Shown one piece after another: positions 2,041 through 43,005 of a DNA stretch of 64,000 bases. This DNA comes from an uncultured archaeon (GTDB lineage Archaea > Aenigmatarchaeota > Aenigmatarchaeia > QMZP01). The stretch spans positions 6,133 to 70,132 of the forward strand of contig CAZCGK010000002.1 of assembly GCA_964498245.1 (NCBI GenBank). Reading direction: 5' to 3'. The notes under the pieces were generated by a model. That model was not told the origin of the DNA and did no database searches. It was given only the letters and a program-made list of their open reading frames with translations. How positions within the stretch are numbered: position 1 is the first letter of the stretch; every line of letters starts with the position of its first letter. Both the position numbers and the translations under genes were made by a program.

Positions 2041-2073
2041 ATTTATTTTAATAGAAAAAATAAAAAATAAAAT

Positions 2074-2883
2074 ATGGTTTCGAAAAGGATAAAAGTGATC
2101 ATAAGTTTGATTGTGGTTGTTTTAATTGCTATATTTGTTCTTTTCACTGTAATGAAAAAACCCGAATTGTACAGCAAAGAAGATATAGAGCTTATAATCG
2201 AGAACAACCTTCCTTATATGAAAGAAATTCTTCTTTCTGAAAACCCAGTTTTTGCAGGATGTATTGCATATTCAACTGATAATATTTCGGTTTGCAATGT
2301 ATTGAAAGGAGACGATGAAAAACAAACCTGTCAAAACGATTATTGTATCTATACACTCCTTTCCCATCAGTGCGAAAAAATAGAAAGAAATCAACAAATA
2401 ATGTCCATAAAACCAACAAGTATAATAGCATATATGGAAGTATGTAGAGCACTCAAATCAAAATCCTGTAAAGATCTTTCTGGTGAGATGAAAAAGATAT
2501 GCGAACTACTTATATCACTTAATGCCCAAGATTGTATTTCATTTCCTGAGCTGAACGTGTCAAAATCCGAGTGTAAGAGTTTAGTGTATCTATATGCTGC
2601 TATTTCAAAAAACGATAGTAGTTACTGTGAAAACATACCAAAATTTTATGAAAGAAATGTATGTATATCCCTTGTATCCAAAGGAGAATGTGAAACGGTT
2701 TTGAATGATATTGCAAGAGATTGGATACGCTTTTCTCTCTCCAGAACCTTGTATAATCATACAGATATCTCTTTATGCGACTCCATAAAATATAAGGAAA
2801 TAAAAAAAGCTTGTAAAGATCCATCGATAATTTATGAGGAAATTATAAGAAACTCCGACAATCTGGTTAAGTTAAATCAGTAA
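2074..2883 (+). CDS. Cys-rich membrane-anchored protein (N-terminal TM helix, about 20 Cys in the ectodomain), hypothetical
   Basis: It has the N-terminal hydrophobic helix VIISLIVVVLIAIFVLFTV and many spaced Cys residues. No catalytic motif is recognisable. Confidence 0.45.
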   Translation: MVSKRIKVIISLIVVVLIAIFVLFTVMKKPELYSKEDIELIIENNLPYMKEILLSENPVFAGCIAYSTDNISVCNVLKGDDEKQTCQNDYCIYTLLSHQCEKIERNQQIMSIKPTSIIAYMEVCRALKSKSCKDLSGEMKKICELLISLNAQDCISFPELNVSKSECKSLVYLYAAISKNDSSYCENIPKFYERNVCISLVSKGECETVLNDIARDWIRFSLSRTLYNHTDISLCDSIKYKEIKKACKDPSIIYEEIIRNSDNLVKLNQ

Positions 2884-2898
2884 TTAAAAATATAAAAT

Positions 2899-3999
2899 AT
2901 GATTCGACCTGAAAACAATCGCATAGATAAATATCTCTTAAGGGAGTATCTGAAAGAGATAGCAAAGGTTGTGAATTTTTATCAAGGTATAGACGATTAT
3001 TCGGAATACATAAAAAACTTTGAAAATATATTCTGCAAATATATCAATGCAAAACATGCCAAAGCGGTAAATTCGGGAACGGATGCCCTGCAGATATCGC
3101 TTATTTCTTTGGGTATAAAAAGGGGAGATGAAGTAATAGTTCCGGACCTTACATACATATCTACCGGACTTGCCGTGATATATTCCGGTGCGAAACCTGT
3201 GTTTGTAGATGTTAAAAAGGAAGATTTAACAGTTGATGAAAACAAACTCGAGAATGCAATAACAGAAAAAACCAAAGCAATAATCCCTGTTCATATGTTC
3301 GGACATCCGTGCAATATGAAAGTTATAGCAGAAATAGCAGAAAAGCATGATCTGAAGATTATAGAGGACTGTTGTCAGGCGTTTTCCTGCAAAATAAACG
3401 AAAGAATGGTAGGAACGTTCGGTGATGCATCTGCTTTCAGTTTTTCTTATTACAAACCGCTTTCCTCCCTATCTGGTAACGGAGGGATGATAGTGTTTAG
3501 AGATTCAGGACTTGCAAGAAGTATAGAAGATTTGATAAAACTCTGGAAATGTAATGATTTGCTAAAGGTGAGCGGTAGAAAATTTCACAAAATCTCTCTT
3601 GTAGATGTAGCAACGATCCTTGTAAAATTGAAAAACTTCAGGTTGATAGAAAAATCCAGAAAAGAAGCCCAAAAACTTTACAGAGAAAATCTGGAAGAGG
3701 TAGAAGAAATTGAAATTCCAAGTGAAAGAAAAGGTAGAGCCTCTATAATGGAGAATTTTGTGATACTCGTCGAAAAGAGGGATAAACTGATAGAATATCT
3801 GAACAGGAAGGGAATAAAAATAGAACATCCCTACAGACCACTACATACCATAAAGATGTTCGGTTACAAAGCAAAACCTCAGGAATTTTCTGTAACAGAG
3901 AGGTATTATCAAAAAGGGCTTCATTTGCCTTTGTACAGTCTCATGAAACCAGAAGAGGTTGAAAAGGTAACAGAAGCTATCATACATTTTTATTCCTAA
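2899..3999 (+). CDS. DegT/DnrJ/EryC1/StrS-family PLP-dependent sugar aminotransferase
   Basis: It has the GTDALQ motif, the small-domain SFSYYKP PLP-lysine region, and a length of about 366 aa typical of the family. Confidence 0.8.
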   Translation: MIRPENNRIDKYLLREYLKEIAKVVNFYQGIDDYSEYIKNFENIFCKYINAKHAKAVNSGTDALQISLISLGIKRGDEVIVPDLTYISTGLAVIYSGAKPVFVDVKKEDLTVDENKLENAITEKTKAIIPVHMFGHPCNMKVIAEIAEKHDLKIIEDCCQAFSCKINERMVGTFGDASAFSFSYYKPLSSLSGNGGMIVFRDSGLARSIEDLIKLWKCNDLLKVSGRKFHKISLVDVATILVKLKNFRLIEKSRKEAQKLYRENLEEVEEIEIPSERKGRASIMENFVILVEKRDKLIEYLNRKGIKIEHPYRPLHTIKMFGYKAKPQEFSVTERYYQKGLHLPLYSLMKPEEVEKVTEAIIHFYS

Positions 4000-5143
4000 G
4001 CCTTTGCAATTTCTTGTCTATTTCCTTATTAAATTTTATTAAAGGACAGTATCTGCATTCTATCCAGAAATCGTTATCCGTATTTATTTCATATTTGTAT
4101 TTAATTCTGGCTTGATGAAATTTATCAGAATTCCATATTTCTATCAATCTATTACGGTATATGTTACCTACCAAAAACTGCTGATGGTTGCAACAAGGAA
4201 ACACATTCCCGTTGATATCTATATGAACATAATACCATCCAGTGTAGCACCTTATATTATTGGAGGCAAGTGTATTCAAATAAAAGAATCTATTATAACA
4301 AGCATTCTCAAATTGCACAGTTTTTCTGTCGCAATTTATAGACCTTTTAATAATATCAAGCACTTCATATAAGTTTGTTCTGTATTTATATTCTCTTTGA
4401 GCTTTCAACAATTTCTCTATTAACAATTTTAATTCTTTCATTTCCTTAGGTGAAAGTATTAGTGAAGATGTATCGCTATTAGCTTGCATGAGTTTGAACT
4501 CTACATATTCTATACCAAATTTTGAACATATTTTGAGCATTTTGTCTATATCTTTGAAATTATACTTGTTCAAGATGTATACAATATGAACAACAGGTTT
4601 ATTCAGTTTTAATTTATTCTTGCTTTTAATTTCATAGAGAAACTTCAAATTTTTTAAAACCCTGTAAAACATTTTATCAGAGCCACCTGCTTGTAGAAAC
4701 CCGTGTTTTTTTGGTGAAACTGCAGAAAGATTTACCCTTATTAAATCAATTTCTAGCATATGTTTCAAATGCTTAGGATGAATGCTGAGATTTGTATCTA
4801 TCATTACCCTTATGTCACTTTTCTTTGCATATTTTATCATCTTAAAAATATCTGGATGCAGAGTAGGTTCTCCCTCTCCTAAAATAGATATCTGCTCCAC
4901 TCCCATGATACGGGAATCATCCACAATTTCTTTAAATTTTTCAAAAGGAAGTGCTTTTTTCTTTTTGCTTTTTTTGACAAATTTCGAATGATACCAGCAA
5001 AATACACATTTGAAATTGCAGAATGAATTTACATGGAGCTTTACGCATCTAGGTCCTACAAAAACCTTATCCAGATATGCACCAAGAAGCCTTAGACTTT
5101 CTGGGGATGCATTATATTTTTGATACCTTTCTATAAACTCCAT
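3980..5143 (-). CDS. radical SAM protein with a C-terminal SPASM/twitch-like Cys cluster
   Basis: It has the CNFKCVFCW CxxxCxxC motif and a GEGEP motif. The C-terminal Cys motifs CCNHQ...CRYCP are SPASM/twitch-like. Confidence 0.75.
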   Translation of the reverse strand: MEFIERYQKYNASPESLRLLGAYLDKVFVGPRCVKLHVNSFCNFKCVFCWYHSKFVKKSKKKKALPFEKFKEIVDDSRIMGVEQISILGEGEPTLHPDIFKMIKYAKKSDIRVMIDTNLSIHPKHLKHMLEIDLIRVNLSAVSPKKHGFLQAGGSDKMFYRVLKNLKFLYEIKSKNKLKLNKPVVHIVYILNKYNFKDIDKMLKICSKFGIEYVEFKLMQANSDTSSLILSPKEMKELKLLIEKLLKAQREYKYRTNLYEVLDIIKRSINCDRKTVQFENACYNRFFYLNTLASNNIRCYTGWYYVHIDINGNVFPCCNHQQFLVGNIYRNRLIEIWNSDKFHQARIKYKYEINTDNDFWIECRYCPLIKFNKEIDKKLQRLRNKNV

Positions 5144-6185
5144 ACCACTCCCTTATTTCTCTTTCAGGATTGAAATGCTTTTTAACAGTCATATATCCAT
5201 TCTGTCCAAGGGAATACATTTTTTCTCTGTTATTGTAAATTTCAATTAGTTTTTCATATATTTCTTCACCAGAAAACGGCTCAACAAGCAGACCGTTGTA
5301 TTCGTGTTTTATTATCTCTTCTGTTCCGCCAACCCTTGTGGCTATCACGGGAATGCCAAGAGACATCGCTTCAAGAACCGCATTGGGAAAACCCTCAAAC
5401 AGAGAGACCTGCACATAAACATCAAACATCTGCATCTCCTTCAAAACATCTTCATGTTTCATCACACCTTTTATTACAATTTTGTGTTTGATACCGGTTT
5501 TTTCCACGGCTTTTAAAAAATTAGAATTATCCGTTTTGCTTGCTCCGATCAGGACAAGTCTAGAATCCGGAATCTTGCTTGCAAATACTTTAAATGCATC
5601 CAAAAGATATTTCCAGCCTTTCAGCTTTCTTATATCACCTAAATATGAAACGTTTCCCACGATGAATTCTTTGCTTCTTTTTCTCTTACAATTTGGAATT
5701 TCAACGGAATTGTTTATAACTTCTGTTCGGGTTTTTCTTCCTGTAATTTTTTCAAATATCTTTAGATGCATTTTGCTAACAGAAACAATATATTTAGCAT
5801 TTTTTGCGACAATGTTACAAACATCAGAAATGGTGTTTAAAATATGGGAACCTCTCAAACCCACGATTGAGGGTTTGTCCAATAGGGAAGCTGCCTTTAC
5901 AGCAATCAAACCATCCGGCTCTATATCAAAACCGTGAATCACATCAAAATCCAATCTCTCATCAAGCCTTTTAATCACCTCAACAGCATTGTTTTCGAAA
6001 TGATTTAGTCTGTAGATAAAAACTCTATTGTTCTTCTGAAATTTGCTTCCACCCCTTCCGGTTATAATATGAAATTCGATTCCTTTGTATCTCTTTACCA
6101 TTCCGTTTACAATCCTTTTTAGCGATACGCTCCTTCCACCAAGTGGTTGCGTGCTGAAATCATTGGAGATGATGCATATTCTCAT
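5112..6185 (-). CDS. glycosyltransferase family 4 (GT-B, retaining)
   Basis: The C-terminal EGFPNAVLEAMSLGIPVIAT E-x7-E motif is typical of GT4. Confidence 0.8.
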   Translation of the reverse strand: MRICIISNDFSTQPLGGRSVSLKRIVNGMVKRYKGIEFHIITGRGGSKFQKNNRVFIYRLNHFENNAVEVIKRLDERLDFDVIHGFDIEPDGLIAVKAASLLDKPSIVGLRGSHILNTISDVCNIVAKNAKYIVSVSKMHLKIFEKITGRKTRTEVINNSVEIPNCKRKRSKEFIVGNVSYLGDIRKLKGWKYLLDAFKVFASKIPDSRLVLIGASKTDNSNFLKAVEKTGIKHKIVIKGVMKHEDVLKEMQMFDVYVQVSLFEGFPNAVLEAMSLGIPVIATRVGGTEEIIKHEYNGLLVEPFSGEEIYEKLIEIYNNREKMYSLGQNGYMTVKKHFNPEREIREWYGVYRKVSKI

Positions 6186-6916
6186 TTTATTCCTCCTGCT
6201 TCGCTCAGCCTTAGAAACTCTGCACCAGTTTTTAGCAAGTACTTCAAAAATATTGCAAGATTTTTGAACCCGTCTGCATCAAAGACATGATGATGCATGT
6301 ATATGCCTATTACAGGCATGGTTTCTCTAAGTAAAATGAATTTTGCTATCACATCTCTGATATTTGAATTTTCCAGACAAAGCGATACCGGTACAAAGGA
6401 AAAACCATATTTTTTCATATCGAATTTTGCTGGTTTTTTGGCTGAGAATATTTTGAAGCCCAGAATATCAACAGCCTTTAAAGTGTTCTCATCATATTTA
6501 TGGTATGGCGGTGTGAATGCAGGTATGAAGTCCCTCTTAAAAAAATTTTCCATAATCTCTTTGCCCCTTTCTATCTCCTCTCTCTGTTTTTCATAAATCC
6601 TTCCGAAGAATTCAAACTTTATCATTTCACTGCCGTAATTCTTATGTATGTATCCATGCTGACCATATTCTATCAGCTCAGGATTTTCTTCCTTAATCCA
6701 CCTGAGCCTTTTTGCAGATTCCTCTGTAAGTTTTCCCGGTATTACAGCATGGTGAATTGGTATTTTCTTTTTGATAAAAATTCTGGATAGTGTCATAAAC
6801 TTTTTGTCTGCATCAAACACATCATCATTTCTAAAAAACACCTTGATCGTGTCCATTTCATTCACATATTTTTTTAAGTCCACGATACAAATTCTCGAGA
6901 CCATTATACCATTCAT
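6182..6916 (-). CDS. putative polysaccharide deacetylase-like protein (divergent)
   Basis: It has FRNDDV and HGYIH motifs reminiscent of a NodB-type metal site. The assignment is tentative. Confidence 0.4.
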   Translation of the reverse strand: MNGIMVSRICIVDLKKYVNEMDTIKVFFRNDDVFDADKKFMTLSRIFIKKKIPIHHAVIPGKLTEESAKRLRWIKEENPELIEYGQHGYIHKNYGSEMIKFEFFGRIYEKQREEIERGKEIMENFFKRDFIPAFTPPYHKYDENTLKAVDILGFKIFSAKKPAKFDMKKYGFSFVPVSLCLENSNIRDVIAKFILLRETMPVIGIYMHHHVFDADGFKNLAIFLKYLLKTGAEFLRLSEAGGIK

Positions 6917-8003
6917 TTTTTATCTTTACATGCATATTTTTCTCAATCTGCTTTTTTATTTCCTCAGCTATTTTCTCAGGTGAAAGTTTATCATATCTTA
7001 TCACAGAGGAACCTAACAAATCCTTCATCATTCTTGCACGGGATACCTGCTCCATCTCTTTCATATAGGGAATGAGCACGGCTTTTTTTCTAAACCACAT
7101 TGTTTCAACAGATGTATTGTAACCGCACATGCTTACGGACACATCGCACATACTCAAATAATCTGTAAACTCTGCATTCGGAAGAAAGCTGAAGGTTTTT
7201 ACATTTTTGAATCCTTTTGAAAGTTTATCAAATATATTTATCTCTTTTTTGGTAGATGCAGGACCATAGCATACAAACATGAAATATTCATTTCCCAAAA
7301 ACCTCAGAGACATTATAGATTTTGCTATTATACCGGGATAAACCACACCACCACCTCTACTCACAAGTACAATCTTCTTATGCATTTCACGCTTGATTTT
7401 TTTCTTTTCTTTCTCTGAAAACACATAACCTGTGAAGATAATCTTTCCTTTCAATTTTCTAAAAAAATTGACATATTCCTCTGCTTTCTCTTTTAATGCT
7501 ACTTTCATATATTCGTATTCAATTTCTGGTGTATGAATAAAAAGCCTGTCAAAGCCTTTAGAATATTCAAGTATTTCTTCTGTTCTGTTCAAATCTAACG
7601 CAGGATATCCTATGGATGCGCATATCTTGGTTTCGGGCATGGTTTTTCTCATCCAGAGGATGAAGGGATAAAGCTCATACTTCCCTTCGGATCTTCCGAA
7701 GGGAAAAAACTCTGTTAAGAAAAGATCCGGTTTGAACCTTTTCACAATGCTTTTCATGATAAAAAGCCTTTTTCTTATTTTTCCCGTATCCAAGGGCATT
7801 CCAGCTCTGTAAAACTCCCTTCTATCCCGGAGCGGATAAGGAAGGTTCACAATCTCTATATCCGAAAAATCCACATCCTGCTTCTTTCCGCCGTTGAGAA
7901 TGAGAATTTGAGTTCCTTTGCTTTGCAAACACCTCGCTATTCTCAGTGTTCTTGTGGTATGTCCCAGGGTTTCCCTGTGAGTATAATACATCATTATTTT
8001 CAT
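6858..8003 (-). CDS. GT-B fold glycosyltransferase (GT1/GT28-like)
   Basis: It has a two-domain size of about 380 aa and the N-terminal YYTHRETLGHTTR motif. It is translationally coupled to the flanking genes. Confidence 0.5.
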   Translation of the reverse strand: MKIMMYYTHRETLGHTTRTLRIARCLQSKGTQILILNGGKKQDVDFSDIEIVNLPYPLRDRREFYRAGMPLDTGKIRKRLFIMKSIVKRFKPDLFLTEFFPFGRSEGKYELYPFILWMRKTMPETKICASIGYPALDLNRTEEILEYSKGFDRLFIHTPEIEYEYMKVALKEKAEEYVNFFRKLKGKIIFTGYVFSEKEKKKIKREMHKKIVLVSRGGGVVYPGIIAKSIMSLRFLGNEYFMFVCYGPASTKKEINIFDKLSKGFKNVKTFSFLPNAEFTDYLSMCDVSVSMCGYNTSVETMWFRKKAVLIPYMKEMEQVSRARMMKDLLGSSVIRYDKLSPEKIAEEIKKQIEKNMHVKIKNEWYNGLENLYRGLKKICE

Positions 8004-8959
8004 ATAATATCCCTATTGCAGCCTTTCAAAAAACCATGATAGGATAGGCATTTCGGACATTTTCCCTTTAGTGCTTTTTCGATCACAGCTTTTCTCTTTC
8101 CTTCCTCTACAATTCCGGTATGGATGTTACCTACAGGGTCCTGATAAAGACAGGGAAAAATATTACCTCGGGAATCGATAAATAGGGATGTTTTTGGTGT
8201 GAGGCACTTTTTTATAAAATTCAGGTCTGGGTTTTCTGTAAACTTCACAAGTTGCACAATCCATAAATTGTTTTTACCCTTGTATTTATCCTTTAGAATT
8301 TTTAACAGATCTATTTTGGTGTGTTTCAGTTCTCTTCGAGAAAGCTGTATAATCTTGGTTTCTTTTATACGATGATAATACCTGCTTAAATACTCACCAA
8401 ATTTAGGTTCGAAAAAACAACCAAGTTTTTTAGCTAATTCATAAATACTGTAAAGATCCTTATAATTAAGCTTGGTTATTACTGTTTTTATCGAAATCGG
8501 TATAAAAGGATATCTCCTTTTTATCATTCGAATGGTTTTTACTGTTTTTTGAAATGCATTATTCATACCGCGCTGAAGATTATGGGTCTCCTTTAAACCG
8601 TCAAGGCTTATCCCAAATTCCGTACCATGAAGAATAGCTTTACTGTTTTTCAGAAATTCAAGGATTTTTTCTGTGGCATAACCATTTGTCGTAATGTTTA
8701 TAGATATTACCCTTTTCTTGATATATAAAAAATAGAGATATCTGTATATTTTTTCAAATTCCGGGTGAAGAAAACACTCACCTCCTGTGAGAGAGATAGA
8801 AAGCCTGTTTTCAAATTTGCTGACAAAACTCAAAATATTCACCAAATCCAGATCATTTATTTCCCTTTCCTTCCATATACTGCACATTCTACATTTAAGA
8901 TTACATCTATTGGTTATTTCAAATGTAAGGTTTTTTACATCCTCTAAACATTTACTCAT
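8000..8959 (-). CDS. radical SAM protein with a SPASM/twitch-like C-terminal Cys cluster
   Basis: It has a CNLKCRMCS CxxxCxxC motif near the N-terminus and C-terminal CLYQ...CPKCLSY cysteines. Confidence 0.7.
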   Translation of the reverse strand: MSKCLEDVKNLTFEITNRCNLKCRMCSIWKEREINDLDLVNILSFVSKFENRLSISLTGGECFLHPEFEKIYRYLYFLYIKKRVISINITTNGYATEKILEFLKNSKAILHGTEFGISLDGLKETHNLQRGMNNAFQKTVKTIRMIKRRYPFIPISIKTVITKLNYKDLYSIYELAKKLGCFFEPKFGEYLSRYYHRIKETKIIQLSRRELKHTKIDLLKILKDKYKGKNNLWIVQLVKFTENPDLNFIKKCLTPKTSLFIDSRGNIFPCLYQDPVGNIHTGIVEEGKRKAVIEKALKGKCPKCLSYHGFLKGCNRDII

Positions 8960-10272
8960 TCCACCACCAGCGGATCCTCTGCATAATAGCTACCAAAAAC
9001 CTTTTTTGCCATGGTTCTGCTCCCACCTTTGCATACAGGATAGATTTCGCATACTTTACATCTTTCAGGAAGATACTCAAGATTCCTCAGTTTTTTCATT
9101 AGAGTGCTGTTCCATGCAGCATTTATATTTTTCCACGTACCTGCAACATCATCCGAATAATAAACAGGTTTCACATCACCGTTTACAGATATTACCATTC
9201 TATCCCTTCCATCATCCATAAAACCACCCAGGGAAAACACTCGTGCAGTAAAACCTTCTCCAAGAAAACAAAACGGAAAAGCGTTTGTTATCACACTTCG
9301 TGTTCCAAATTTTTCGTAAAATTTTAATGAATGATTGAAAAAGGAACAGAGAGACTTTTTTTCAGCCTCCGCATGAATTAATCGATAGTTTTCATGAACG
9401 AGCCCGAGCTTTTTCTTGATAAGAAGAAATATATCGAAAAGCGAATCACGATTTTTTTCATTGATAACAGTCCCTGCTCTCAGAAATATCCGAGGATTGA
9501 TTCTTTTTATTTTCAGAACGGTTTTGAGCTTATTTTTGAAACTGTAAGGATTTCCTGTGATTTTGGCTTCCCCTTTGGGTGTAGAGTGATGAAGAGGAAT
9601 GAGAACAGAATCTGTATGTTTTATTATATCAGTGTAATGTTTGTTATCCGTAAATGTTCCGTTGGAATTTATCCATACCTCCATTTTAAGTGATTTTGCA
9701 TATTTAACATAGTTGTATAAATTTGAATCCATAAAAGGTTCTCCGCCGGTGAATCTTATTCTCCTGATACCCATTTTATATGCTTGATTTATTACCGAAA
9801 AAACCACTTCCGAATCTATGAATTCATAATCATGTTTTGGAGAAAAACAAAAAAAGCAATTAAGATTGCATTTTGATGTTATCTCTATTGAAATTTCTTT
9901 AGGCAGATCCTTTACCGGCTCTGGGTTATTAGAAAAATCTTCTGGAAAACCTGCACAAAATCTGTTGAATTTACACTCTTTACACTGTGGAGATTTTGTT
10001 TTGTGGTTGCTCGATATATTTATTATATGCTCTTCTGCATCAGGGAGTATGCAGTAGGGAAGGTTAAAGAATATCATGCTCGTTTTTTCTTCAAATCTAT
10101 TAATGAGTGTATAAAGTACGGACCTGATTTTGAAAAAATCAGGAGGATTCTTGCTATCAAAGATTACATCAACCAGAGGTATATTTCGAGTTTCAAGCAG
10201 CTTGATTAAAGAGATGAGATTTTTCACATTTTTTTTGTTTATTTGCAGTGTGAGTTTTTCGGAATTCAGCAT
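8956..10272 (-). CDS. radical SAM/SPASM protein with an N-terminal extension of about 130 aa
   Basis: It has a CNLNCFFCF CxxxCxxC motif, a GGEP motif, and a C-terminal CKVCEIYPVCKGG cluster. Its N-terminal extension contains a CKECKFNRFC motif. Confidence 0.7.
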   Translation of the reverse strand: MLNSEKLTLQINKKNVKNLISLIKLLETRNIPLVDVIFDSKNPPDFFKIRSVLYTLINRFEEKTSMIFFNLPYCILPDAEEHIINISSNHKTKSPQCKECKFNRFCAGFPEDFSNNPEPVKDLPKEISIEITSKCNLNCFFCFSPKHDYEFIDSEVVFSVINQAYKMGIRRIRFTGGEPFMDSNLYNYVKYAKSLKMEVWINSNGTFTDNKHYTDIIKHTDSVLIPLHHSTPKGEAKITGNPYSFKNKLKTVLKIKRINPRIFLRAGTVINEKNRDSLFDIFLLIKKKLGLVHENYRLIHAEAEKKSLCSFFNHSLKFYEKFGTRSVITNAFPFCFLGEGFTARVFSLGGFMDDGRDRMVISVNGDVKPVYYSDDVAGTWKNINAAWNSTLMKKLRNLEYLPERCKVCEIYPVCKGGSRTMAKKVFGSYYAEDPLVVE

Positions 10273-20513: not shown

Positions 20514-21344
20514 TTATTTATTTTTTCCAGCATACCAGAGAGCTGCTGAAATAACAGCGGTTATTATAAGAATTATTATTGAGGATGAATACGGACCATT
20601 AATTATATTACTGACCGCACCTATCATTCCTGTGATGGTGTTTTCTGGGTTCTCTATATCAATCGGTTCTCTTCTGTCTGATTGCTCCTCTCTGTCCCTC
20701 CTGACCGGTTTATTCTTCACACTTCTCTCAATTTCTGATGATGTATTATCATTCAAGCCAACTGAAAAATTCTCTGCATTTATATAAGTATTGCTTTTTT
20801 CTGCATTTTCCTGATAAATTCCTGTAATATTCTGGTCTCCCATTACATTAACTTCAAATTTAAAGCTTCTTAACTGAGAGGTTGTCAGTATGTTTTCAGG
20901 ACCCTTTACCACTGCAGATAATCTTATATAATACTTCCCTGGTTCTATGTTTTGCGGTGTTTTGACCATAACCCTGACCACTCTTGCTTTGATATCACCA
21001 TGACCCGTTCCGAGAAACTCGTATCCTTCCTCCAGTTCTGAACTTCCAGGCTCTGAATAAGGGAGATAGAAGTTTTTTGGGGTTATTGTTATGTTAAACC
21101 CCTTTGGCAACTCTGTAACATTCATGCTGACATATATTCCAGGTTTTTCATGAATGTTGAAAAGGAGTATTTTGAAGCTTGTTACATCCCCTGGCAGAAT
21201 ATCTATAGATTTCTTTCCATAAGCACTACCAAGAGGTATCACTGCATGGATATTCTGTATTGATAGAATCAAGAAGAATACTAACATTACCAAAAATATC
21301 ACTGCATATCTTCCGTTTAAGTTCACTTTATGGTTCTTCACCAC
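20514..21344 (-). CDS. secreted protein with a C-terminal membrane anchor, hypothetical
   Basis: It has a signal peptide and a C-terminal TM helix. Confidence 0.45.
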   Translation of the reverse strand: MVKNHKVNLNGRYAVIFLVMLVFFLILSIQNIHAVIPLGSAYGKKSIDILPGDVTSFKILLFNIHEKPGIYVSMNVTELPKGFNITITPKNFYLPYSEPGSSELEEGYEFLGTGHGDIKARVVRVMVKTPQNIEPGKYYIRLSAVVKGPENILTTSQLRSFKFEVNVMGDQNITGIYQENAEKSNTYINAENFSVGLNDNTSSEIERSVKNKPVRRDREEQSDRREPIDIENPENTITGMIGAVSNIINGPYSSSIIILIITAVISAALWYAGKNK

Positions 21345-24300
21345 TTTCCACCCCTTCTATATATAGAGTTCCGGTATAGTTATCCGCAGTTATTCCGAAC
21401 GGAATATCTATCCAGTAGTACATGGTTACATTTGTGGATGGCGAAACGGCCTCTTTGAGCAGATTCCAGGAATAACCCAGTCTGTAACCACTGCTGTATT
21501 CATTCGTTGCATTATTCCATGTTATGTTTCCAACCTGAATATAATAATTATCGTTTAATGATCTGTTCAGGTCTGTTCCCTTTATATAAAGATCAACATT
21601 ACATGTTGTTACGGACTCCACTGTAATGTTGTAGTTGTCATTGACATTCCCAGGAGCTGAATTGTTGGTTGTTCCTGGTTGGAGGTTTCCAAAATCTATA
21701 CTATCCCACTGAAGGGTTATGTCAAGAATACAGGACACTATCTGAATGGTATTATTATCTGTGGTGTTATCATCCAGATATGACATGTTTGATTCAAGAA
21801 GCGCGCCGATTTTGTAGCTCGATCCTATGGTGCCTGTAGCATTCACATTCCATACCAGTTCACAGTATTCATCCTTGTCCAAAGGATTTCCGGAGCAGTT
21901 CTGGGGATTGGGATTGTCCGTAATGTAAAAAGGAGTGTCACCTTCAGTTGTGCTTATATCCGTGTCAGGATTACTTGATGTGGAGTTGTATCTGATTCTG
22001 CCTGTTACATTTCCGCAGTAACCCTTTCTACAGTAGACAGTCACGTTTACCAAGAATGTTGTGTTCTGTGCAACATTTTTCTGATCTACAGGCTCCACAA
22101 GCATGACCTCGAGATAGCCCTGTTTTATTGTTATAGAATCATTTGCGCTGAGGGGCTCATAATCCTGTACAGATCCGTTGCAGGTAACATTCCAGGAATA
22201 GAAACCACCCAGGGAGAAAGACCTGTTGTATTCATAAAGAAGGCTGGAGGAATTGAATGTCATGTTGAAGGGACCGTATGGACTTACATTGAAGGATATC
22301 TCACAGTAAACCCCTGATCCATTGATAGGCTCTCCGGAGGTCAGGTTGGTGTAGTTCGCAAAGAATGTAACATTCTCGTTCACATAAACCGTCCTGGATC
22401 CACCTTCAGGATCTGTTTGATCCCATATACTCAGATTGGAATTTGCTGAGGAGGAATAATTGGTGAAATGGGTTACGTTGAATGAAAGGGTTCCAGAGGA
22501 ATAGCTTGTTATAACGCAGTCAGGAGGATTGCATATTTTCCCATCCCTTAATATTACAGGGGTGTGGAGATAGCTTAAACCATAAAATGTGATGTTTGCA
22601 GAGGTATTGAATGTGTCATTCAGGTTTGCAGAATCCACATCCACGAAATTATATCCGAAGGTTATGTAGGTATCAAAATCCGCCCAGCTTGCATTCACGC
22701 AACCGTACCACACAATCCTGAACACGCCCACCTTTCCTAACAAGGGCTGGCACACATTGGTTATATCCTCCACACTCTCAAAGTCTGTGGTTTCAGGATC
22801 ATCGAAGTTTGCATAGGATGGGGAGGGGAATCTTATTGAGAGGCTTCTCTTTTCAGATTCCTTTTCGTTTGCACCATCAGAGCATGTTATCCACCACTCG
22901 TAATCCCCATCAGCAAGAGTTTCATTCACCTGAATGGTTGTTGAGCTATCATTCAGAGCATTCACCGTTCCATAGGGTTTAGGTATTCCGGTTCCTGTAT
23001 CCGTTCTGTTGAGGAAAATCTCGCAGCTCAGGGTTGATGCCCTGTCATCACTGGTATTAAATATGAACTTTGGCACTCTTGTAGTTGTATTTATTGTATT
23101 GTTTGGAGGATATTCAAGATTTACACTTGGCGAGGTCGAATCAATTATAAGGGTTCTGTTTGTATCAGACCAGTCCTCATTCCCTGATGTATCATTGCAG
23201 TACACTCCCCATTTCCATTCTCCTTCAGGAATGCCACTAACGGTTACATACCATACTGTATTGTTTATCGGGCTTGAATTGGTCTGGTTTGCTGACCACA
23301 CACCAGACCAGTCTGACCAGAGCTGGAGATAATCGGGCTGAACATCATCCCAGCACTTTAGTTCGAATGTAATTGTGGACGAAGAGGAGATGTAGTTATC
23401 AGGCGGGTTCGTTCCGAACTTTGCCACAGGTGGGCTGGCATCGGATAGATATGCAAATATTACATCTATGTATGGAGGGAGGTTACTTTCGTTGCTGAAC
23501 GATACGGTTACGTTATGGTTGTGATACTCGTCTGCTACGCTTACCTGCTGTCCTATCGACCTTCCCCTGTCCCAGCTATCAGATGCCCAACTTACTGATA
23601 TGACAAGGTTGTCATGTGTGTGATTTTCCGATCCTCCGGTTGCTCCGTATGCTGTTGAACCAACTATGAACCTCTTGTAGAAATCCCCTCCAGGATTGGA
23701 CATCACTATCCAGTTGGAGGGTGGTGTGCCATCGAACATTCCTATCAGGCCTGTAGGTATTTCTGTATCAGATTCTGCCTTCGCAAGGGTGACATTTATA
23801 AACGGAGGTCTGTGATCTGCTGTGCTTGTTGGTCCTCCAGAACCTGTGTGGGTATGATCACTGATTGCTGCATCTGTCGAATATACCTCAGTACCCACTG
23901 TCCCTTTCGCTATGCTGAGCGTTATCTTCACTGTAGAATGGTAGTGTGTATTATTACCTCCTGTGGATATGCTCGCGTTGCCCATGACAAAATATCCATC
24001 CTGTGCTATGTATAAACTCCAGCCAGGGGGAATGCTCTCATTGAATATTGCTATGGCCCCTGCAGGTATGGTTGTCGGGATTCCGCTGTCATACACTATC
24101 ACCTTCAGGCTTCTGTAAGAGGGCAGGGATGTTGCGTTTGAAACCGAATAGGAACTTATGCCTCCATGGGTGTGGTTTGCGCTTGATGGGTGAGACTCAG
24201 TACCTTCCCTTGCTGATAACGTATCCACACATGCAGTTTCGTTTACGTAAATCACGGCATGTGTGTGTGTCTCAGAACCACCTGTTGCTCCATATTTCTC

Positions 24301-26451
24301 ATTACCTCTGGGAAACCTTTCGTAGAATGGGTCTCCTGGAGAGCAGGATATGCATGTCCAGCCCTCTGGTGCATCAACAGTTTCGTTATCCCAGAATAAT
24401 ATTAAATGTGTTGGAAGGATTATCCTTCTGATCTCTGATTGGTTTTGCTTTGCATAGGCATTGGCACAGCTTATCCACCAATCGTAACTACCCTTTAGAA
24501 GACTTGAGTTGGCTGTAAGGGTTGTGAGGGTGTTATTAAGCACTGAAGTATTTTCATCATAGGGCTGAGGTGTTCCTGAGCCTGTATCTGTTCTGTTTAT
24601 CCAGAGTGTGCAGGAAAAGGTTGTGGAGTAGACATCGTATACTGTGAAGGTAAAGCTGGGTGTTGTGGTGGTGATTTCTGCATTGTCTTCTGGGGAGTGC
24701 AGTTCTATGTGGATTGGTGTGGGTGAAAGAGGAAGGTAATCCTTTGCCCAGGAATAATCAGCAGAGATATTGTATTCTGAGTCGCAGATGCCGTTGCCAT
24801 CCTGGTCTTGGCATGTATCAGAGAAGTTTCCATCCGGATCTGTCCAGTAGTTTCCTCCTATGCAGGGACCTCCTATTATGTTGGTTTGACCTGAGCAGTT
24901 AAGGCTGGTGTTGAAAAAGTTCGGGTTATCTATGTGGTCACCTATCTCTATGTTTTGCGTGTTGTTGAAAAAGTTATTATAGATGCAATTGTATTCTGGG
25001 TCCCAGTTTACATCACCACTTGCAGCCTTAAGACCTATACCTTCAGCATTGTTTGTTATAATGGAAGAGGTTATGTTATTGTAGTCAGAATCCCCATAAA
25101 GGAGGATTCCTTCATCATAGTTATAATTTGCTGTGATATTGGTGAGACTGTTATTGTTACTCTGGCATATGTAGATTCCACGATCGTTGTAATTTACTGT
25201 GATGTTAGTAAGAATATTGGAGGAAGAAGAGTCGAGGCAGATTCCACGATAGTTGTAACTTGAATTGATTTGGGAGAGAGTTGTGTTTTCTGTTCTCAGA
25301 AGGTAGAGCATGTTATTTTTCTTTGTTGGAGAACCGAGGATTGTTATGTTTGTTAGGTTGGAATTGTCTGCGTTGCAGAGGATAAGTTCTGAGAGGGTTT
25401 TATCCTGAAGGTTTACGGAGTAGTTGTAGTATTCTATGGGTCTTCCTCCTGAGCCTGTGATGTTCTGGAGGAGGTTGTTGCAGTGGGAGTCTTCAGAGGT
25501 AGATATAGCGAAATCATATACATCATTTTCCTGCAGGGTTATGTTGTGAAGGGTGTTAAAGGAGGAGGAATAGAGGTAGATTCCATCCTCGCTATTGTAA
25601 TTTGCTGTGATGTTGGTGAGGATGCTATTGTTGCTGGAATATAGGTAGATTCCGTGATAATTGTAATTTGCTGTGATGTTGGTGAGGGTGTTGGAGGATG
25701 ATGAATCAAGATATATTCCATTCCAGAAATAACTTATGTTCCCGCAGTTTTTGATTGTATTATTATCCGAAGAATCATTGAGCCAGATTCCGTAGCCGTA
25801 AGAGTCTCCGTCTCCTGAGATTGTGTGGCCTGCGCAGTCAAAGGTTAGATTGTCTGCTCCTCCGAATTTTATGCAGGATTCTCCGGAGTCTGTGTTATCA
25901 TTTGCGCCTGCATAATTGGTTATGTCTGCTGTAAGCTTTAGAATGTCTCCTGAAATCATGGTTCCGTTCTGGAGGTAGGAAGAGCATTCTTCGCAGGAGG
26001 AGCATGTGTAGACAGCGAAGTTTTCTGTATATTCTATATCCTCACCAAAGCGGAATTCCAATTTATGCATCTGGGATGTGAGAACCCTGAATGTTGCATA
26101 TCCAGTTTTACTGCATGCATAATCCCTCACAAGAATCGAATCCGTTCCATTCAGCCATGTATAATTTAGCATGAGATTCCCGCACCTTATTTCCACAAAT
26201 CTCAAATCATAACCAGAATCAGCATGATTGCTTAAAGTTGTACCCACAGGTGAGATTATGAGATCTGTTCGACCCTTCGTGATAAATGCCACAGTCCAGT
26301 TTCCACCCACAACAGGATAGCTCTGAGGATTCAGTATCTCTATCTCCGGCTGATGTAGAAGAGCCTTATCAGAAGAAATCTGAGACATTCCAAGAATCAC
26401 TATCAATGCTCCAAGCAAAGCCTTGTGAAAAAAACAGACATCCAAACTCAT
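21328..26451 (-). CDS. giant (1707 aa) secreted surface protein with right-handed parallel beta-helix (PbH1/NosD-like) repeats and duplicated His-rich modules
   Basis: It has a signal peptide and repeated NITANYNYxGIYL beta-helix repeats. Two copies of a YGATGGSE(T/N)HTH ... H(T/N)H module are present, and NxS/T sequons are very dense. Confidence 0.65.
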   Translation of the reverse strand: MSLDVCFFHKALLGALIVILGMSQISSDKALLHQPEIEILNPQSYPVVGGNWTVAFITKGRTDLIISPVGTTLSNHADSGYDLRFVEIRCGNLMLNYTWLNGTDSILVRDYACSKTGYATFRVLTSQMHKLEFRFGEDIEYTENFAVYTCSSCEECSSYLQNGTMISGDILKLTADITNYAGANDNTDSGESCIKFGGADNLTFDCAGHTISGDGDSYGYGIWLNDSSDNNTIKNCGNISYFWNGIYLDSSSSNTLTNITANYNYHGIYLYSSNNSILTNITANYNSEDGIYLYSSSFNTLHNITLQENDVYDFAISTSEDSHCNNLLQNITGSGGRPIEYYNYSVNLQDKTLSELILCNADNSNLTNITILGSPTKKNNMLYLLRTENTTLSQINSSYNYRGICLDSSSSNILTNITVNYNDRGIYICQSNNNSLTNITANYNYDEGILLYGDSDYNNITSSIITNNAEGIGLKAASGDVNWDPEYNCIYNNFFNNTQNIEIGDHIDNPNFFNTSLNCSGQTNIIGGPCIGGNYWTDPDGNFSDTCQDQDGNGICDSEYNISADYSWAKDYLPLSPTPIHIELHSPEDNAEITTTTPSFTFTVYDVYSTTFSCTLWINRTDTGSGTPQPYDENTSVLNNTLTTLTANSSLLKGSYDWWISCANAYAKQNQSEIRRIILPTHLILFWDNETVDAPEGWTCISCSPGDPFYERFPRGNEKYGATGGSETHTHAVIYVNETACVDTLSAREGTESHPSSANHTHGGISSYSVSNATSLPSYRSLKVIVYDSGIPTTIPAGAIAIFNESIPPGWSLYIAQDGYFVMGNASISTGGNNTHYHSTVKITLSIAKGTVGTEVYSTDAAISDHTHTGSGGPTSTADHRPPFINVTLAKAESDTEIPTGLIGMFDGTPPSNWIVMSNPGGDFYKRFIVGSTAYGATGGSENHTHDNLVISVSWASDSWDRGRSIGQQVSVADEYHNHNVTVSFSNESNLPPYIDVIFAYLSDASPPVAKFGTNPPDNYISSSSTITFELKCWDDVQPDYLQLWSDWSGVWSANQTNSSPINNTVWYVTVSGIPEGEWKWGVYCNDTSGNEDWSDTNRTLIIDSTSPSVNLEYPPNNTINTTTRVPKFIFNTSDDRASTLSCEIFLNRTDTGTGIPKPYGTVNALNDSSTTIQVNETLADGDYEWWITCSDGANEKESEKRSLSIRFPSPSYANFDDPETTDFESVEDITNVCQPLLGKVGVFRIVWYGCVNASWADFDTYITFGYNFVDVDSANLNDTFNTSANITFYGLSYLHTPVILRDGKICNPPDCVITSYSSGTLSFNVTHFTNYSSSANSNLSIWDQTDPEGGSRTVYVNENVTFFANYTNLTSGEPINGSGVYCEISFNVSPYGPFNMTFNSSSLLYEYNRSFSLGGFYSWNVTCNGSVQDYEPLSANDSITIKQGYLEVMLVEPVDQKNVAQNTTFLVNVTVYCRKGYCGNVTGRIRYNSTSSNPDTDISTTEGDTPFYITDNPNPQNCSGNPLDKDEYCELVWNVNATGTIGSSYKIGALLESNMSYLDDNTTDNNTIQIVSCILDITLQWDSIDFGNLQPGTTNNSAPGNVNDNYNITVESVTTCNVDLYIKGTDLNRSLNDNYYIQVGNITWNNATNEYSSGYRLGYSWNLLKEAVSPSTNVTMYYWIDIPFGITADNYTGTLYIEGVESGEEP

Positions 26452-33797: not shown

Positions 33798-33835
33798 AAA
33801 TAAAAATTAATAGTTGTAAATTAAAGAAGACTAAT

Positions 33836-33975
33836 GCCGGTGTAGCTCAGCGGTTAGGTTGAAACCACGTGAAGAGCGCCAGACTCATAACATGAAGTGC
33901 AAAGGTTATGAGTGTTGAGGGTTTTAAACCCTGTGAGAAATCTGGAGGTCGCGGGTTCAAATCCCGCCACCGGCA
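33836..33975 (+). tRNA. tRNA-Met/Ile2 (anticodon CAT) with two introns (D-loop and 37/38)
   Basis: Manual fold: acceptor GCCGGTG/CACCGGC, D stem GCTC/GAGC interrupted by a 16-nt insert, anticodon stem CCAGA/TCTGG with loop CTCATA[about 50-nt intron]A, T arm GCGGG-TTCAAAT-CCCGC, discriminator A. G1-C72 argues for an elongator. Confidence 0.65.
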
Positions 33976-40285: not shown

Positions 40286-40341
40286 GGTTTCACTCTTTTG
40301 AATATTACATCTTTCTGATGATTAGAATATTTAAATATTAA

Positions 40342-40561
40342 TGCGGGGGGCCGGATTTTCGGATTCAAGCTTCTTTTCCAAAGAAGGCTTGTTTTCGAAC
40401 CGGCGAAGGCACTTCCCACTCTTCACACACTTCCATATTTTAGGAAGTGTTAGCTCCTGTGAAGAGTTCTAAGCCACAGGATTTCTCAATCATCATCCTC
40501 TATCAGCTCTCAAGCTTTTCATTCTTGAGTCCTGCCCCTTTAACCACTCGGGCACCCCCGC
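40342..40561 (-). tRNA. tRNA-Leu (anticodon CAA) with three insertions (37/38, variable arm, 59/60)
   Basis: Manual fold: acceptor GCGGGGG/CCCCCGC, 3-bp D stem, anticodon stem CAGGA/TCCTG with loop CTCAAG[intron]A, V-arm GGC...[insert]...GCC, T arm GCCGG-TTCGAA[intron]T-CCGGC, discriminator A. Confidence 0.55.
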
Positions 40562-40574
40562 ATCTAAAGGAAAA

Positions 40575-40720
40575 TGCGGAGGGGAGGATTCTCTTAAAGG
40601 GAGGACATTCTCCCTTAATTCGAACCCCCGAAGGCAATTCTCACCCTCCGTGAGACATCGAAAGGGTTCTAAGCCACAGGGTCCTAAGCCCTGCCCCTTT
40701 GACCGCTCGGGCACCTCCGC
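40575..40720 (-). tRNA. tRNA-Leu (anticodon TAG) with insertions in the variable arm and at 59/60
   Basis: Manual fold: acceptor GCGGAGG/CCTCCGC, anticodon arm CAGGG-CTTAGGA-CCCTG, V-arm TGGCTTAGAAC[insert]GCCTTC, T arm GGGGG-TTCGAA[intron]T-CCTCC, discriminator A. Confidence 0.55.
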
Positions 40721-40732
40721 ATTCCCAAGATA

Positions 40733-40920
40733 TGCTCCCGGCGGGAGTTTCATCCACTACAGGCAAAACCTGCTTGAATTTTGAACCCGCGTCACAGGCT
40801 TTCTTTGATCTTTCATAGACCTTACGGTCTCAACTCTTTCGAGTGATATCTCGAAAGGCCTGTATCCATAGTCACCACTCCTCACGCGGATGTGGTTTGA
40901 CCGGGCTAGACGACGGGAGC
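40733..40920 (-). tRNA. tRNA-Glu-like (anticodon TTC) gene with at least two to three insertions; D-arm not cleanly resolved
   Basis: Manual fold: acceptor GCTCCCG/CGGGAGC, anticodon stem CAGGC/GCCTG with loop CTTTCG[intron]A, T arm GCGGG-TTCAAA[intron]T-CCCGC, discriminator A. The D region has an extra insert. Confidence 0.4.
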
Positions 40921-40962: not shown

Positions 40963-41035
40963 TGGGCCGGGCAGGATTCGAACCTGCGACCCCCGCCACG
41001 TCAAGGCGGTGTCATAACCACTAGACCACCGGCCC
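40963..41035 (-). tRNA. tRNA-Val (anticodon GAC)
   Basis: It folds as a canonical 73-nt cloverleaf with no intron and no encoded CCA. Confidence 0.85.
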
Positions 41036-41101: not shown

Positions 41102-41174
41102 TGGGTCGGCCCGGATTCGAACCGGGGATCTCCGCCGTGTGAAGGCGGCGTCCTAACCGCTAGACCACCAACCC
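41102..41174 (-). tRNA. tRNA-Val (anticodon CAC)
   Basis: It folds as a canonical 73-nt cloverleaf with no intron. Confidence 0.85.
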
Positions 41175-42075: not shown

Positions 42076-43005
42076 ATGAAATGCAGATGCGGAAGAAGAG
42101 CTGTCTATTACAGAAGATTTGAGGGAAGCGCTCTTTGCAAAAAATGTTTTCTGAAATCGATAGAGAAAAAAGTAAAAAGAACCGTTAGAAATAACAAGCT
42201 CATAAGACCTGGAGATAGAATAGCTTTTGCACTTTCCGGTGGCAAGGATTCTTCTGCTGTTCTGTATTTGATGCATGAGATTATTTCTCCCAGAAGGGAT
42301 ATGGAAATGTTCGCAATAACGATAGATGAAGGCATATCCTCTTACAGACCCAAAACGATAAAAGCTGCAAAGAAACTCTGCAAAGAACTCGGAATCGAAC
42401 ATTATGTTTTTTCTTTTAAAGATTTTTTTGGTAAAACTCTTGATCAGAAGGTAAAGGAAATAAAGAATTGTGAAATAAAGGAACCGTGCACCTATTGCGG
42501 TGTGGGAAGAAGATATGTGTTGAATCTGAAAGCAAGGGAGTTGGGAGCAACAAAGATATGCACAGGACACAATCTCGATGATGAGGTCCAGAGTATAATC
42601 ATGAATTACATTCGTGGAGATATTCTCAGAGCAGGCAGACTCGGTCCTGTAACAGATTTTTCAATAAGAAAAAAGCATGGCAAGATGTTCATTCCCAGAA
42701 TAAAACCCTTAAGAGAGATACCGGAAAAGGAGATAGCGCTTTATATAATGCTGAAAAACATGGATATATCCTGGGATGAATGTCCCTATGCCTCAGGTAT
42801 AAGATTTGATGTCAGAGATTTTATAAACAATCTTGAGAAAAAATATCCAGGAACAAAATATACAATACTTTACGCGTTTGATAAAATCGTACCATACATA
42901 AGAAAAGCCTCCGTGTTCAAAGAAGGAGAGATATTGAAATGCAAAAAGTGTGGAGAACCCGCGTCAGGAGAGGTATGCAAAGCATGCGAACTATGGAAAG
43001 CATGA
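42076..43005 (+). CDS. ncsA: tRNA 2-thiolation PP-loop ATPase (NcsA/Ncs6/TtuA family)
   Basis: It has the SGGKDS PP-loop motif and CxxC pairs at both the N-terminus (CRCG...CKKC) and C-terminus (CKKCGEP...CKAC). Confidence 0.8.
   Translation: MKCRCGRRAVYYRRFEGSALCKKCFLKSIEKKVKRTVRNNKLIRPGDRIAFALSGGKDSSAVLYLMHEIISPRRDMEMFAITIDEGISSYRPKTIKAAKKLCKELGIEHYVFSFKDFFGKTLDQKVKEIKNCEIKEPCTYCGVGRRYVLNLKARELGATKICTGHNLDDEVQSIIMNYIRGDILRAGRLGPVTDFSIRKKHGKMFIPRIKPLREIPEKEIALYIMLKNMDISWDECPYASGIRFDVRDFINNLEKKYPGTKYTILYAFDKIVPYIRKASVFKEGEILKCKKCGEPASGEVCKACELWKA

Follow-up and report, generated by a model that had tools for sequence, protein, structure and literature searches.

A two-intron tRNA-Met(CAU) gene from an uncultured aenigmatarchaeon, with a candidate wobble-methylation guide inside its anticodon-loop intron

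D-loop introns in archaeal tRNA genes are already on record, at positions 20/21 and 22/23 according to a review (PMC4090602). In Methanopyrus kandleri, pre-tRNA-Glu(UUC) carries a canonical intron together with a relaxed HBh' intron at 20b/21, and mature tRNA sequences have been obtained by RNA-seq (PMC5829648). In Aeropyrum pernix, the D-loop intron of pre-tRNA-Thr2(UGU) is cut in vitro by an (alpha-beta)2 splicing endonuclease (EndA) with a Crenarchaea-specific loop, and it is cleaved more slowly than the intron in the anticodon loop (PMC3241643). Among DPANN archaea, whose endonucleases are mostly of the alpha4 type, increased disruption of tRNA genes has been linked to endonucleases with an 'L3' loop (PMC5829648). 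Here, we describe a tRNA gene from an uncultured archaeon of the Aenigmatarchaeota, found in a stretch of 64,000 nucleotides (contig CAZCGK010000002.1, positions 6,133 to 70,132; hereafter the window, to which all coordinates refer). The gene has the anticodon CAU and is interrupted by two inserts, one in the D-loop and one in the anticodon loop. We consider it likely that this is a functional elongator tRNA-Met(CAU) gene whose 140-nt transcript loses both inserts as introns, and that the longer intron first guides methylation of C34. The two-intron architecture is already known in kind, and the multi-intron tRNA-Met is in itself an ordinary, though nicely preserved, example; the embedded candidate guide for wobble methylation is the more interesting part.

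Introns that also guide RNA modification have precedents. The pre-tRNA-Trp intron reportedly contains a box C/D guide (work associated with Clouet d'Orval in 2001 and Singh in 2004), and its guide fold and splicing fold have been reported as mutually exclusive. In Haloferax volcanii, a stand-alone box C/D RNA, sR-tMet, is said to methylate C34 of the intron-containing pre-tRNA-Met (a finding credited to Joardar in 2011). Two reports state that the box C/D RNA of the euryarchaeal pre-tRNA-Trp intron guides 2'-O-methylation of both C34 (Cm34) and U39 (Um39) (PMC4090602, PMC11408192), and tRNA-Trp is classically the sole known case of such a guide within an intron, termed 'a unique example' in review (PMC4090602). 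Two further reports attribute Cm34 of archaeal elongator tRNA-Met to a C/D ribonucleoprotein (RNP), with Haloferax sR-tMet acting on the intron-containing precursor (PMC4033218, PMC6601510). Finally, the 66-nt intron of elongator tRNA-Met in Nanoarchaeum equitans has been described as a stable RNA that combines boxes C and D with a GC hairpin and is 'potentially guiding RNA methylation' (PMC3491384).

The tRNA(CAU) gene with its two inserts is real and stands far above chance. In the 64-kb window, positions 33836-33975 on the forward strand form a full-length match to the Rfam family RF00005 (55.6 bits, E 2.8e-9; gathering score 29), and the fit opens two insertions, of 19 nt in the D-loop and 52 nt in the anticodon loop. 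The locus is base-for-base the same in the independent Logan assembly of SRR7051320. When run on the unspliced window, ARAGORN reported two intron-less tRNA-Val genes and missed this gene; given the 73-nt product that results from removing both inserts in silico, it called tRNA-Met(cat). That product folds as a cloverleaf at -33.4 kcal/mol, which equals its minimum free energy (MFE). It has a 7-nt anticodon loop, CUCAUAA, and all of its stems and tertiary-interaction bases are intact (U8, A14, G18 G19, A21, and the T-loop UUCAAAU).

Three kinds of tRNA could in principle be read from a CAU anticodon. Initiator tRNA-Met is marked by A1:U72 and by three G:C pairs that close the anticodon stem; these hallmarks are not present in our gene, which has G1:C72 and the anticodon stem CCAGA/UCUGG. 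The same anticodon is common to elongator tRNA-Met and to tRNA-Ile2, in which C34 is converted to agmatidine to read AUA, and assignment to tRNA-Ile2 would leave the two-intron structure the same. We regard this assignment as improbable. The acceptor GCCGGUG/CACCGGC and the T-arm are like those of archaeal elongator tRNA-Met, whereas tRNA(CAU) genes with a GGGCC(C/U)G acceptor and an ACCGG/CCGGU anticodon stem, recovered in the species scan described below, look like archaeal tRNA-Ile. Furthermore, the guide in the intron would aim at the 2'-OH of C34, and Cm34 is an established modification of elongator tRNA-Met (PMC4033218, PMC6601510); the precedent in N. equitans, as described, likewise concerns elongator tRNA-Met (PMC3491384). 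On the strength of the acceptor type, the Cm34-directed guide, and this precedent, elongator tRNA-Met is very likely the correct identity.

The insert in the anticodon loop has the features of a textbook hBHBh' substrate for the archaeal splicing endonuclease. We defined a strict bulge-helix-bulge (BHB) motif as a 4-bp helix with 3-nt bulges on opposite strands, cut after the second bulge nucleotide, and with flanking helices. At 37/38, the central helix would pair C32-A35 with the intron-terminal UGAG (CUCA/UGAG, four of four pairs), between the bulges UA↓A and AA↓A (arrows mark cuts), with an outer helix of 5 bp supplied by the anticodon stem and an inner helix of 2 bp. Alternative BHB registers also appear in the strict scan of this region. 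A preliminary description of the gene had proposed an intron of about 50 nt at this site, which agrees with our result of exactly 50 nt (33890-33939) between A37 and A38.

For the insert in the D-loop, the loop and insert together measure 25 nt between the D-stem strands GCTC and GAGC. Excision of 17 nt, AGGTTGAAACCACGTGA (33856-33872), leaves an 8-nt D-loop, AGCGGUUA, and boundaries shifted by +1 or +2 nt give the identical product. The spliced loop retains G18 G19 and A21 and is identical to that of an intron-less relative, L080 (L numbers denote loci from our scans). In a scan anchored on the D-arm, the sequence reads GCUC A (GCGG) UU↓A GGU-UGAA-ACC (ACGU) GA↓A GAGC, with the strands of the BHB helix in parentheses. 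The helix GCGG/ACGU, which uses G15-G19, would consist of G.U, C-G, and G-C pairs plus a G19·A mismatch; its bulges are UU↓A and GA↓A, and the inner hairpin, GGU/ACC, has 3 bp. The D-stem serves as the outer helix, adjoining the 3' bulge directly and being offset on the 5' side by A14.

Several observations weigh against this motif. The strict scan reported no BHB for the D-loop insert owing to the G·A in the helix and the interruption by A14, and a relaxed, position-anchored scan was therefore needed. In addition, the BHB register is 0.5 kcal/mol less stable than the MFE structure of the D-arm, its pair probabilities are about 0.3, and the D-arm folds no better than its shuffles (z = -0.37). 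Taken alone, the predicted D-arm BHB is thus thermodynamically marginal. Since folding energy does not single it out, we rejected energy as evidence and used comparative data instead. Shuffles of the 17-mer restricted to this geometry gave P of about 0.002.

We scanned one genome per GTDB species with a pattern for tRNA(CAU) genes that have over-long D-loops. Among the 68 loci returned, about 35 are archaeal tRNA genes with inserts in the D-arm, and they come from Woesearchaeota, Micrarchaeota, unclassified archaeal metagenome-assembled genomes (MAGs), Hod-, Heimdall-, Odin-, and Baldrarchaeota, Thaumarchaeota, and Bathyarchaeia; the bacterial matches are tandem or partial tRNA copies. With so many archaeal genes spread over DPANN, Asgard, Thaumarchaeota, and Bathyarchaeia, the earlier statement that D-loop introns are rare and confined to a few archaeal lineages was too strong. 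Seven archaeal tRNA(CAU) genes (L028, L033, L049, L068, L058, L057, and L047) match our gene in the site of the insert and in its layout: NNGG as the first helix strand, UU↓N, then a hairpin or loop, the 4-nt strand that pairs with NNGG, and RR↓A abutting GAGC. These homologous introns measure 13-34 nt, and their excision always leaves ...GGUUA. When the eight D-arms are aligned, both variable helix pairs change on both sides (C-G/U-A; A-U/U-G/C-G), and 91.7% of the cells pair, compared with 27-50% after the partner strand is displaced by 1-3 columns. This degree of covariation was reached by 4 of 500 shuffles in what is a small sample of eight related sequences. In five of these eight genes, G19·A is the mismatch that adjoins the 5' bulge.

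A scan of metagenomes added L080 and L083, the latter being a second copy of the L028 gene. The exons of L028/L083, the closest relative, are identical to ours at 70 of 73 positions, the differences including a compensatory change of C28-G42 to U28-A42, while their 14-nt D-loop intron is 65% identical and their 46-nt anticodon intron 53% identical to the introns of our gene. L080 also matches at 70 of 73 exon positions, has no insert in the D-loop, and carries the D-arm AGCGGTTAGAGC, which is exactly the predicted spliced product. Such conservation of exons, divergence of introns, and presence or absence of the insert argue for an intron as predicted and against a pseudogene in decay, which would not show them.

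It could be supposed that the D-loop insert is no intron, and that the gene is a decaying pseudogene or encodes a tRNA that keeps a 25-nt D-loop. The thermodynamic marginality of the D-arm BHB and its failure in the strict scan would fit that account, which we nevertheless find very improbable. Every stem and every tertiary-interaction base is intact, the exons share 96% identity with those of L028, including a compensatory change in a stem, in spite of divergent introns, the same site and the same arrangement of bulges and helix recur in eight genes, and the predicted product is present in the intron-less L080. We know of no functional cytosolic tRNA with a 25-nt D-loop. The D-loop insert is therefore supported as a candidate intron in a relaxed BHB that appears to be kept by compensatory changes.

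The boundaries of this intron can also be weighed. The preliminary description correctly recognized an insert in the D-arm, and it put the length at 16 nt, GTTGAAACCACGTGAA; motif geometry and the intron-less relatives point to 17 nt. Removal of 16 nt would leave a 9-nt D-loop, AGCGGUUAG. A tRNA with a 9-nt D-loop is not impossible, but no bulge-helix-bulge register yields those cut sites, the intron-less relatives L080 and L073 have AGYGGTTA followed by GAGC and thus an 8-nt loop, and all eight homologous D-loop introns leave ...GGUUA immediately before the D-stem. We find the shorter boundaries barely credible. The broader proposal that this is a tRNA(CAT) gene with two introns, one of them in the D-loop, stands on firmer ground, given the strict BHB at 37/38, the recurrence of the relaxed D-loop BHB, the predicted spliced D-loop in L080, and a spliced product that is a canonical tRNA.

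Our gene resembles M. kandleri tRNA-Glu in having two introns, one with a strict canonical BHB and one with a relaxed D-loop motif just before position 21, and in requiring excision of the latter to restore the D-loop. It differs in specifying Met instead of Glu and in belonging to DPANN instead of Methanopyri; moreover, mature reads are reported for Methanopyrus, whereas excision in our gene is predicted. A closer analogue of the M. kandleri gene is the window's own tRNA-Glu(UUC) at 40733-40920, which has a third intron, in the T-loop. As with A. pernix tRNA-Thr2, a BHB intron in the D-loop would need an endonuclease of broad specificity. The A. pernix motif is a canonical BHB, in contrast to the relaxed one here, with its G·A in the helix and offset outer helix.

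Some further features of these introns deserve mention. No function of its own is evident for the D-loop intron, which is similar to D-loop introns found in GGGCCC-type tRNA(CAU) genes from Odin- and Baldrarchaeota (AGGUUGAAA...). These Asgard introns (L033 167-218, L049, and L068) start with AGGUUGAAAA(A)CC, which is near-identical to AGGUUGAAACC in the window (33856-33872), though the tRNA and the phylum differ. Common ancestry, transposition of the intron, or convergence toward a minimal hairpin could account for the likeness. Another recurrent motif, CGUGA, stands just ahead of 3' splice sites in the D-loop intron of the window and in the canonical introns of both L028 and L081. Four DPANN tRNA-Met genes (L027, L085, L081, and L029) have a third insert in the T-loop (e.g., GGTTCAAATGAAATTGG...), and tRNA-Met thus appears to bear one to three introns among DPANN lineages. 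Among the bacterial matches, L015, L016, L056, L060, and L063 (Bacteroidota, Patescibacteria, Planctomycetia, and an unclassified bacterial MAG) are tRNA(CAU)-like sequences whose D-loop is broken by a GC-rich hairpin (CCCGCCCG...CGGGCGGG), and a complete second copy of the tRNA lies downstream in L015, L016, and L060. These sequences have no relation to BHB introns and may be repeats or terminators inserted into duplicated fragments of tRNA.

The 50-nt intron in the anticodon loop appears to hold more than a splicing substrate. In the MFE fold of the precursor, the anticodon BHB is not formed, and the intron element GUUAUGAGU lies antisense on the anticodon loop instead. This conformer is predicted at -48.4 kcal/mol, compared with -40.2 kcal/mol for the conformer with both BHBs, and would be more stable by 8 kcal/mol. 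At the sequence level, the intron can be drawn as a kink-turn in which a hairpin stem is followed by a 3-nt bulge, tandem G·A/A·G pairs (the GA of UUGA against the GA of GUGAGAA), and then G.U and A-U. The 9-bp guide duplex spans positions 2 to 10 upstream of UUGA, and position 5 pairs with C34 ("N+5"). Since UGAG (33934-33937) would serve both the kink-turn and, as partner of C32-A35, the BHB, the kink-turn fold and the splicing fold should be mutually exclusive.

We searched for an antisense element ending in UGAG followed by 2 nt, xUGA, a hairpin, 3 nt, and GA, and found this module in seven distinct tRNA-Met introns: those of the window, L028/L083, L027/L085, L081, L074, L004 (Micrarchaeota), and L029 (Woesearchaeota). 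The pairs were tabulated by explicit parsing, MAFFT having misaligned the intron modules. All seven hairpin stems differ, with covariation between their strands (GGGUU/AACCC, GC/GC, AUCC/GGAU, ACCC/GGGU, UCCCU/GGGGA, GCUUU/GAAGC, and GGA/UCC), and the pair that joins position 1 of D' to position 6 of C' is A-U in three introns and U-A in two, with a mismatch in the remaining two. Two neighbouring genes in the window extend the set. The canonical intron of tRNA-Glu reads CUCGAAAGAG-UUGA-GACC GUAA GGUC-UAU-GA, and its N+5 nucleotide pairs with U34. The 37/38 intron of tRNA-Leu(CAA) reads GCUUGAG-AG-CUGA-UAGAGG-AUGAUGA, with perfect consensus D' and C' boxes and a 6-nt joining loop, and the N+5 nucleotide of its antisense element pairs with C34; its D'1:C'6 pair is G-C, as in the box C/D consensus. 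Kink-turn geometry, as judged from sequence, is kept in the seven tRNA-Met introns and in tRNA-Glu, and the full module occurs in at most 8 of 10,000 shuffles per intron.

A covariance model built from L027 and L081 only recovered L028/L083, and its top match in the window, with filters off, was at 40808-40837 on the minus strand (E 0.04), within the canonical intron of tRNA-Glu. Models from two and from six sequences retrieved L028/L083 and the tRNA-Glu module of the window, whereas they missed L004, L029, and L074. A match at 42269-42309 was rejected because it lies inside a coding gene and is without the GA pairs.

Not all of the evidence favors a methylation guide. Efficient archaeal C/D RNPs normally use two C/D motifs. 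Our tRNA-Met intron has one box pair and one kink-turn and does not form a terminal C/D motif, and its boxes are degenerate, with GUGAGAA matching RUGAUGA at five of seven positions and UUGA matching CUGA at three of four. With the two-sequence covariance model, its module ranked third in the window, at 13.8 bits and E of about 1. A Pfam scan of 45 open reading frames (ORFs) of the 64-kb window found no EndA, L7Ae, Nop5, or fibrillarin. At a permissive E-value, no Rfam family matches the 50-nt intron. A C-box-like AUGAAGU at 33892-33898 is without a D partner and is not conserved in relatives; a second kink-turn made from it together with GUGA of the D-loop intron or with the 3' end of the intron was rejected, as it has no closing stem and is not conserved.

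Accounts other than methylation therefore need to be considered, in which the antisense element and the kink-turn only bind L7Ae or stabilize the intron, hold the anticodon loop until splicing, or arise as a side effect of BHB pairing. They would accommodate the single kink-turn with its single guide, the degenerate boxes, and the absence of C/D RNP genes from the 64-kb window. The tRNA-Met UGAG is, moreover, complementary to C32-A35, so that some UGA motifs could stem from constraints on the BHB. That argument does not extend to the C' boxes AUGAUAG, AUGAUUA, and AUGAUGA of L027, L028, L029, and tRNA-Leu(CAA), which are not complementary to the anticodon loop, nor to the D' box UUGA of tRNA-Glu, which is unrelated to the anticodon complement; the module is thus no by-product of BHB pairing. 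Further evidence against these accounts is that nucleotide 34 falls at N+5 in nine of nine introns (the spacing was fixed by the search for the seven tRNA-Met introns, so that tRNA-Glu and tRNA-Leu(CAA) are the independent cases), that covariation of the D'1:C'6 pair follows the pattern of genuine box C/D motifs, and that the full module is very unlikely to arise by chance. We regard a function other than guiding as unlikely, though serious enough to be kept in view. The long intron is most likely a cis-acting, single-guide RNA of the box C'/D' type for the wobble C34. Given its single box pair and single guide, we say that it 'works like' a half-mer C'/D' guide and do not call it a canonical C/D small RNA.

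Compared with N. equitans, our gene represents the same tRNA species, superphylum, and intron site, and each intron, so far as the N. equitans RNA is described, has one C and one D motif and a hairpin in a C/D-like RNA. Both introns would be long because of the C/D-like RNA that they hold. The N. equitans description that we compared names no target; to it, the module in the window would add C34 as target, kink-turn geometry, and conservation across Aenigmarchaeota-like, Woesearchaeota, and Micrarchaeota sequences. With pre-tRNA-Trp, our gene would share a methylation guide that lies within the intron and targets the wobble position of the tRNA itself, along with a guide fold and a splicing fold that exclude each other, as is reported for tRNA-Trp. 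The tRNA-Trp intron has complete C, D', C', and D boxes with guides for C34 and U39, whereas the tRNA-Met intron has one hairpin-closed D'/C' kink-turn and one guide. Haloferax sR-tMet would act on the same nucleotide of the same tRNA and likewise on the precursor, but it is separately encoded and acts in trans, unlike the candidate guide in our intron, which would act in cis.

A possible course of events runs as follows. Transcription, possibly from the A/T-rich stretch at 33800-33813, would yield a precursor that folds with the intron antisense element on the anticodon loop. The kink-turn would recruit L7Ae, and Nop5 and fibrillarin would then 2'-O-methylate the wobble C34 to Cm34. Because the kink-turn and BHB strands overlap, the precursor would have to refold before splicing, probably with the aid of proteins, to expose both BHBs. 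By analogy with established archaeal splicing, EndA would cut the four bulge sites, an RtcB-type ligase would join the three exons into the 73-nt tRNA, and CCA would be added.

The proposal can be widened to DPANN in general, where canonical tRNA introns might commonly bear a minimal single-guide D'/C' kink-turn that methylates nucleotide 34 of its own tRNA in cis before the refolding for splicing; on this we consider the case to be evenly balanced. If true, modification would explain why introns are retained in these tiny genomes, and the 'unique' case of tRNA-Trp would extend to several tRNAs, three of them with such introns in the window (Met-CAU, Glu-UUC, and Leu-CAA), and to a half-mer RNP architecture. 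The module offers a testable reason for long tRNA introns in reduced genomes, namely, that they are self-contained guides for wobble methylation. It would also provide a compact natural 'half-mer' box C/D substrate within a precursor that switches between a modification fold and a splicing fold.

The features discussed here, together with those of the neighbouring tRNA genes, are collected in Table 1.

Table 1. Positions of observed and predicted features in the window
Feature	Positions	Strand	Basis or remark
A/T-rich stretch ATAAAAATTAATAG, 23-36 nt upstream of the tRNA gene; possible archaeal B recognition element (BRE)/TATA promoter	33800..33813	+	read from sequence
Elongator-type tRNA-Met(CAU) precursor, 140 nt, 3' CCA not encoded	33836..33975	+	Rfam, ARAGORN on spliced 73-mer
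Exon 1: acceptor 5' strand, U8 A9, D-stem 5' strand, D-loop A14 to U20a	33836..33855	+	
Predicted D-loop intron, 17 nt, AGGUUGAAACCACGUGA, between U20a and A21, relaxed BHB	33856..33872	+	
Exon 2: A21, D-stem 3' strand, G26, anticodon-stem 5' strand, C32 to A37	33873..33889	+	
Anticodon CAU	33886-33888	+	
Predicted canonical 37/38 intron, exactly 50 nt, strict hBHBh'	33890..33939	+	exhaustive strict BHB scan
Antisense element GUUAUGAGU, predicted to pair with A31 to A37 and the first two intron nt (9 bp)	33905..33913	+	
D'-box-like UUGA, putative kink-turn non-bulged strand	33915..33918	+	
Hairpin GGGUU-UUA-AACCC, putative canonical stem of the kink-turn	33919..33931	+	
3-nt bulge UGU and C'-box-like GAGAA (read as GUGAGAA)	33932..33939	+	overlaps BHB strand UGAG 33934-33937
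Exon 3: A38, anticodon-stem 3' strand, variable loop, T-arm, acceptor 3' strand, discriminator A73	33940..33975	+	
tRNA-Leu(CAA), at least three inserts: 41-nt strict-BHB intron at 37/38, 38-nt intron at 59/60, long variable-arm insert	~40340-40561	-	
tRNA-Leu(UAG)-like, 146 nt, inserts in variable arm and T-loop, no anticodon-loop intron	40575-40720	-	
tRNA-Glu(UUC), unannotated, three introns	40733-40920	-	missed by ARAGORN and Rfam
tRNA-Glu T-loop intron at 59/60, 33 nt, strict BHB	40747-40779	-	
tRNA-Glu canonical 37/38 intron, 51 nt, strict BHB	40801-40851	-	
tRNA-Glu D-loop intron, 27 nt, relaxed BHB, H = GUCA/UGAC	40869-40895	-	
tRNA-Val, intron-less, two genes	40963-41035, 41102-41174	-	

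The two tRNA-Val genes, tRNA-Glu, tRNA-Leu(CAA), and the tRNA-Leu(UAG)-like gene form a tandem cluster of five on the minus strand. On the window as it stands, ARAGORN and Rfam missed the three of these that have multiple inserts; the 77-mer obtained by splicing tRNA-Glu in silico was called tRNA-Glu(ttc) by ARAGORN. Multi-intron genes of this kind escape the standard finders, so that the tRNA sets of DPANN archaea are under-called.

The wider setting is archaeal. The window has 33-45% G+C and encodes archaeal ribosomal proteins, aIF5B, Kae1, and NFACT, and homologues of the S-layer-like protein upstream of the tRNA-Met gene are annotated as Candidatus Aenigm(at)archaeota. These features point to a DPANN host, probably an Aenigmarchaeote. 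A synteny search through homologues of this protein and of the downstream 149-aa membrane protein found tRNA(CAU) in none of 11 loci. Elsewhere in the window, at 411-10272 and 21328-26451, four radical-SAM/SPASM proteins are encoded in a cluster with glycosyltransferases, a DegT-type aminotransferase, and a polysaccharide deacetylase, and a 1707-aa NosD/beta-helix protein is encoded farther on; these genes likely represent machinery for cell-surface glycans and surface proteins.

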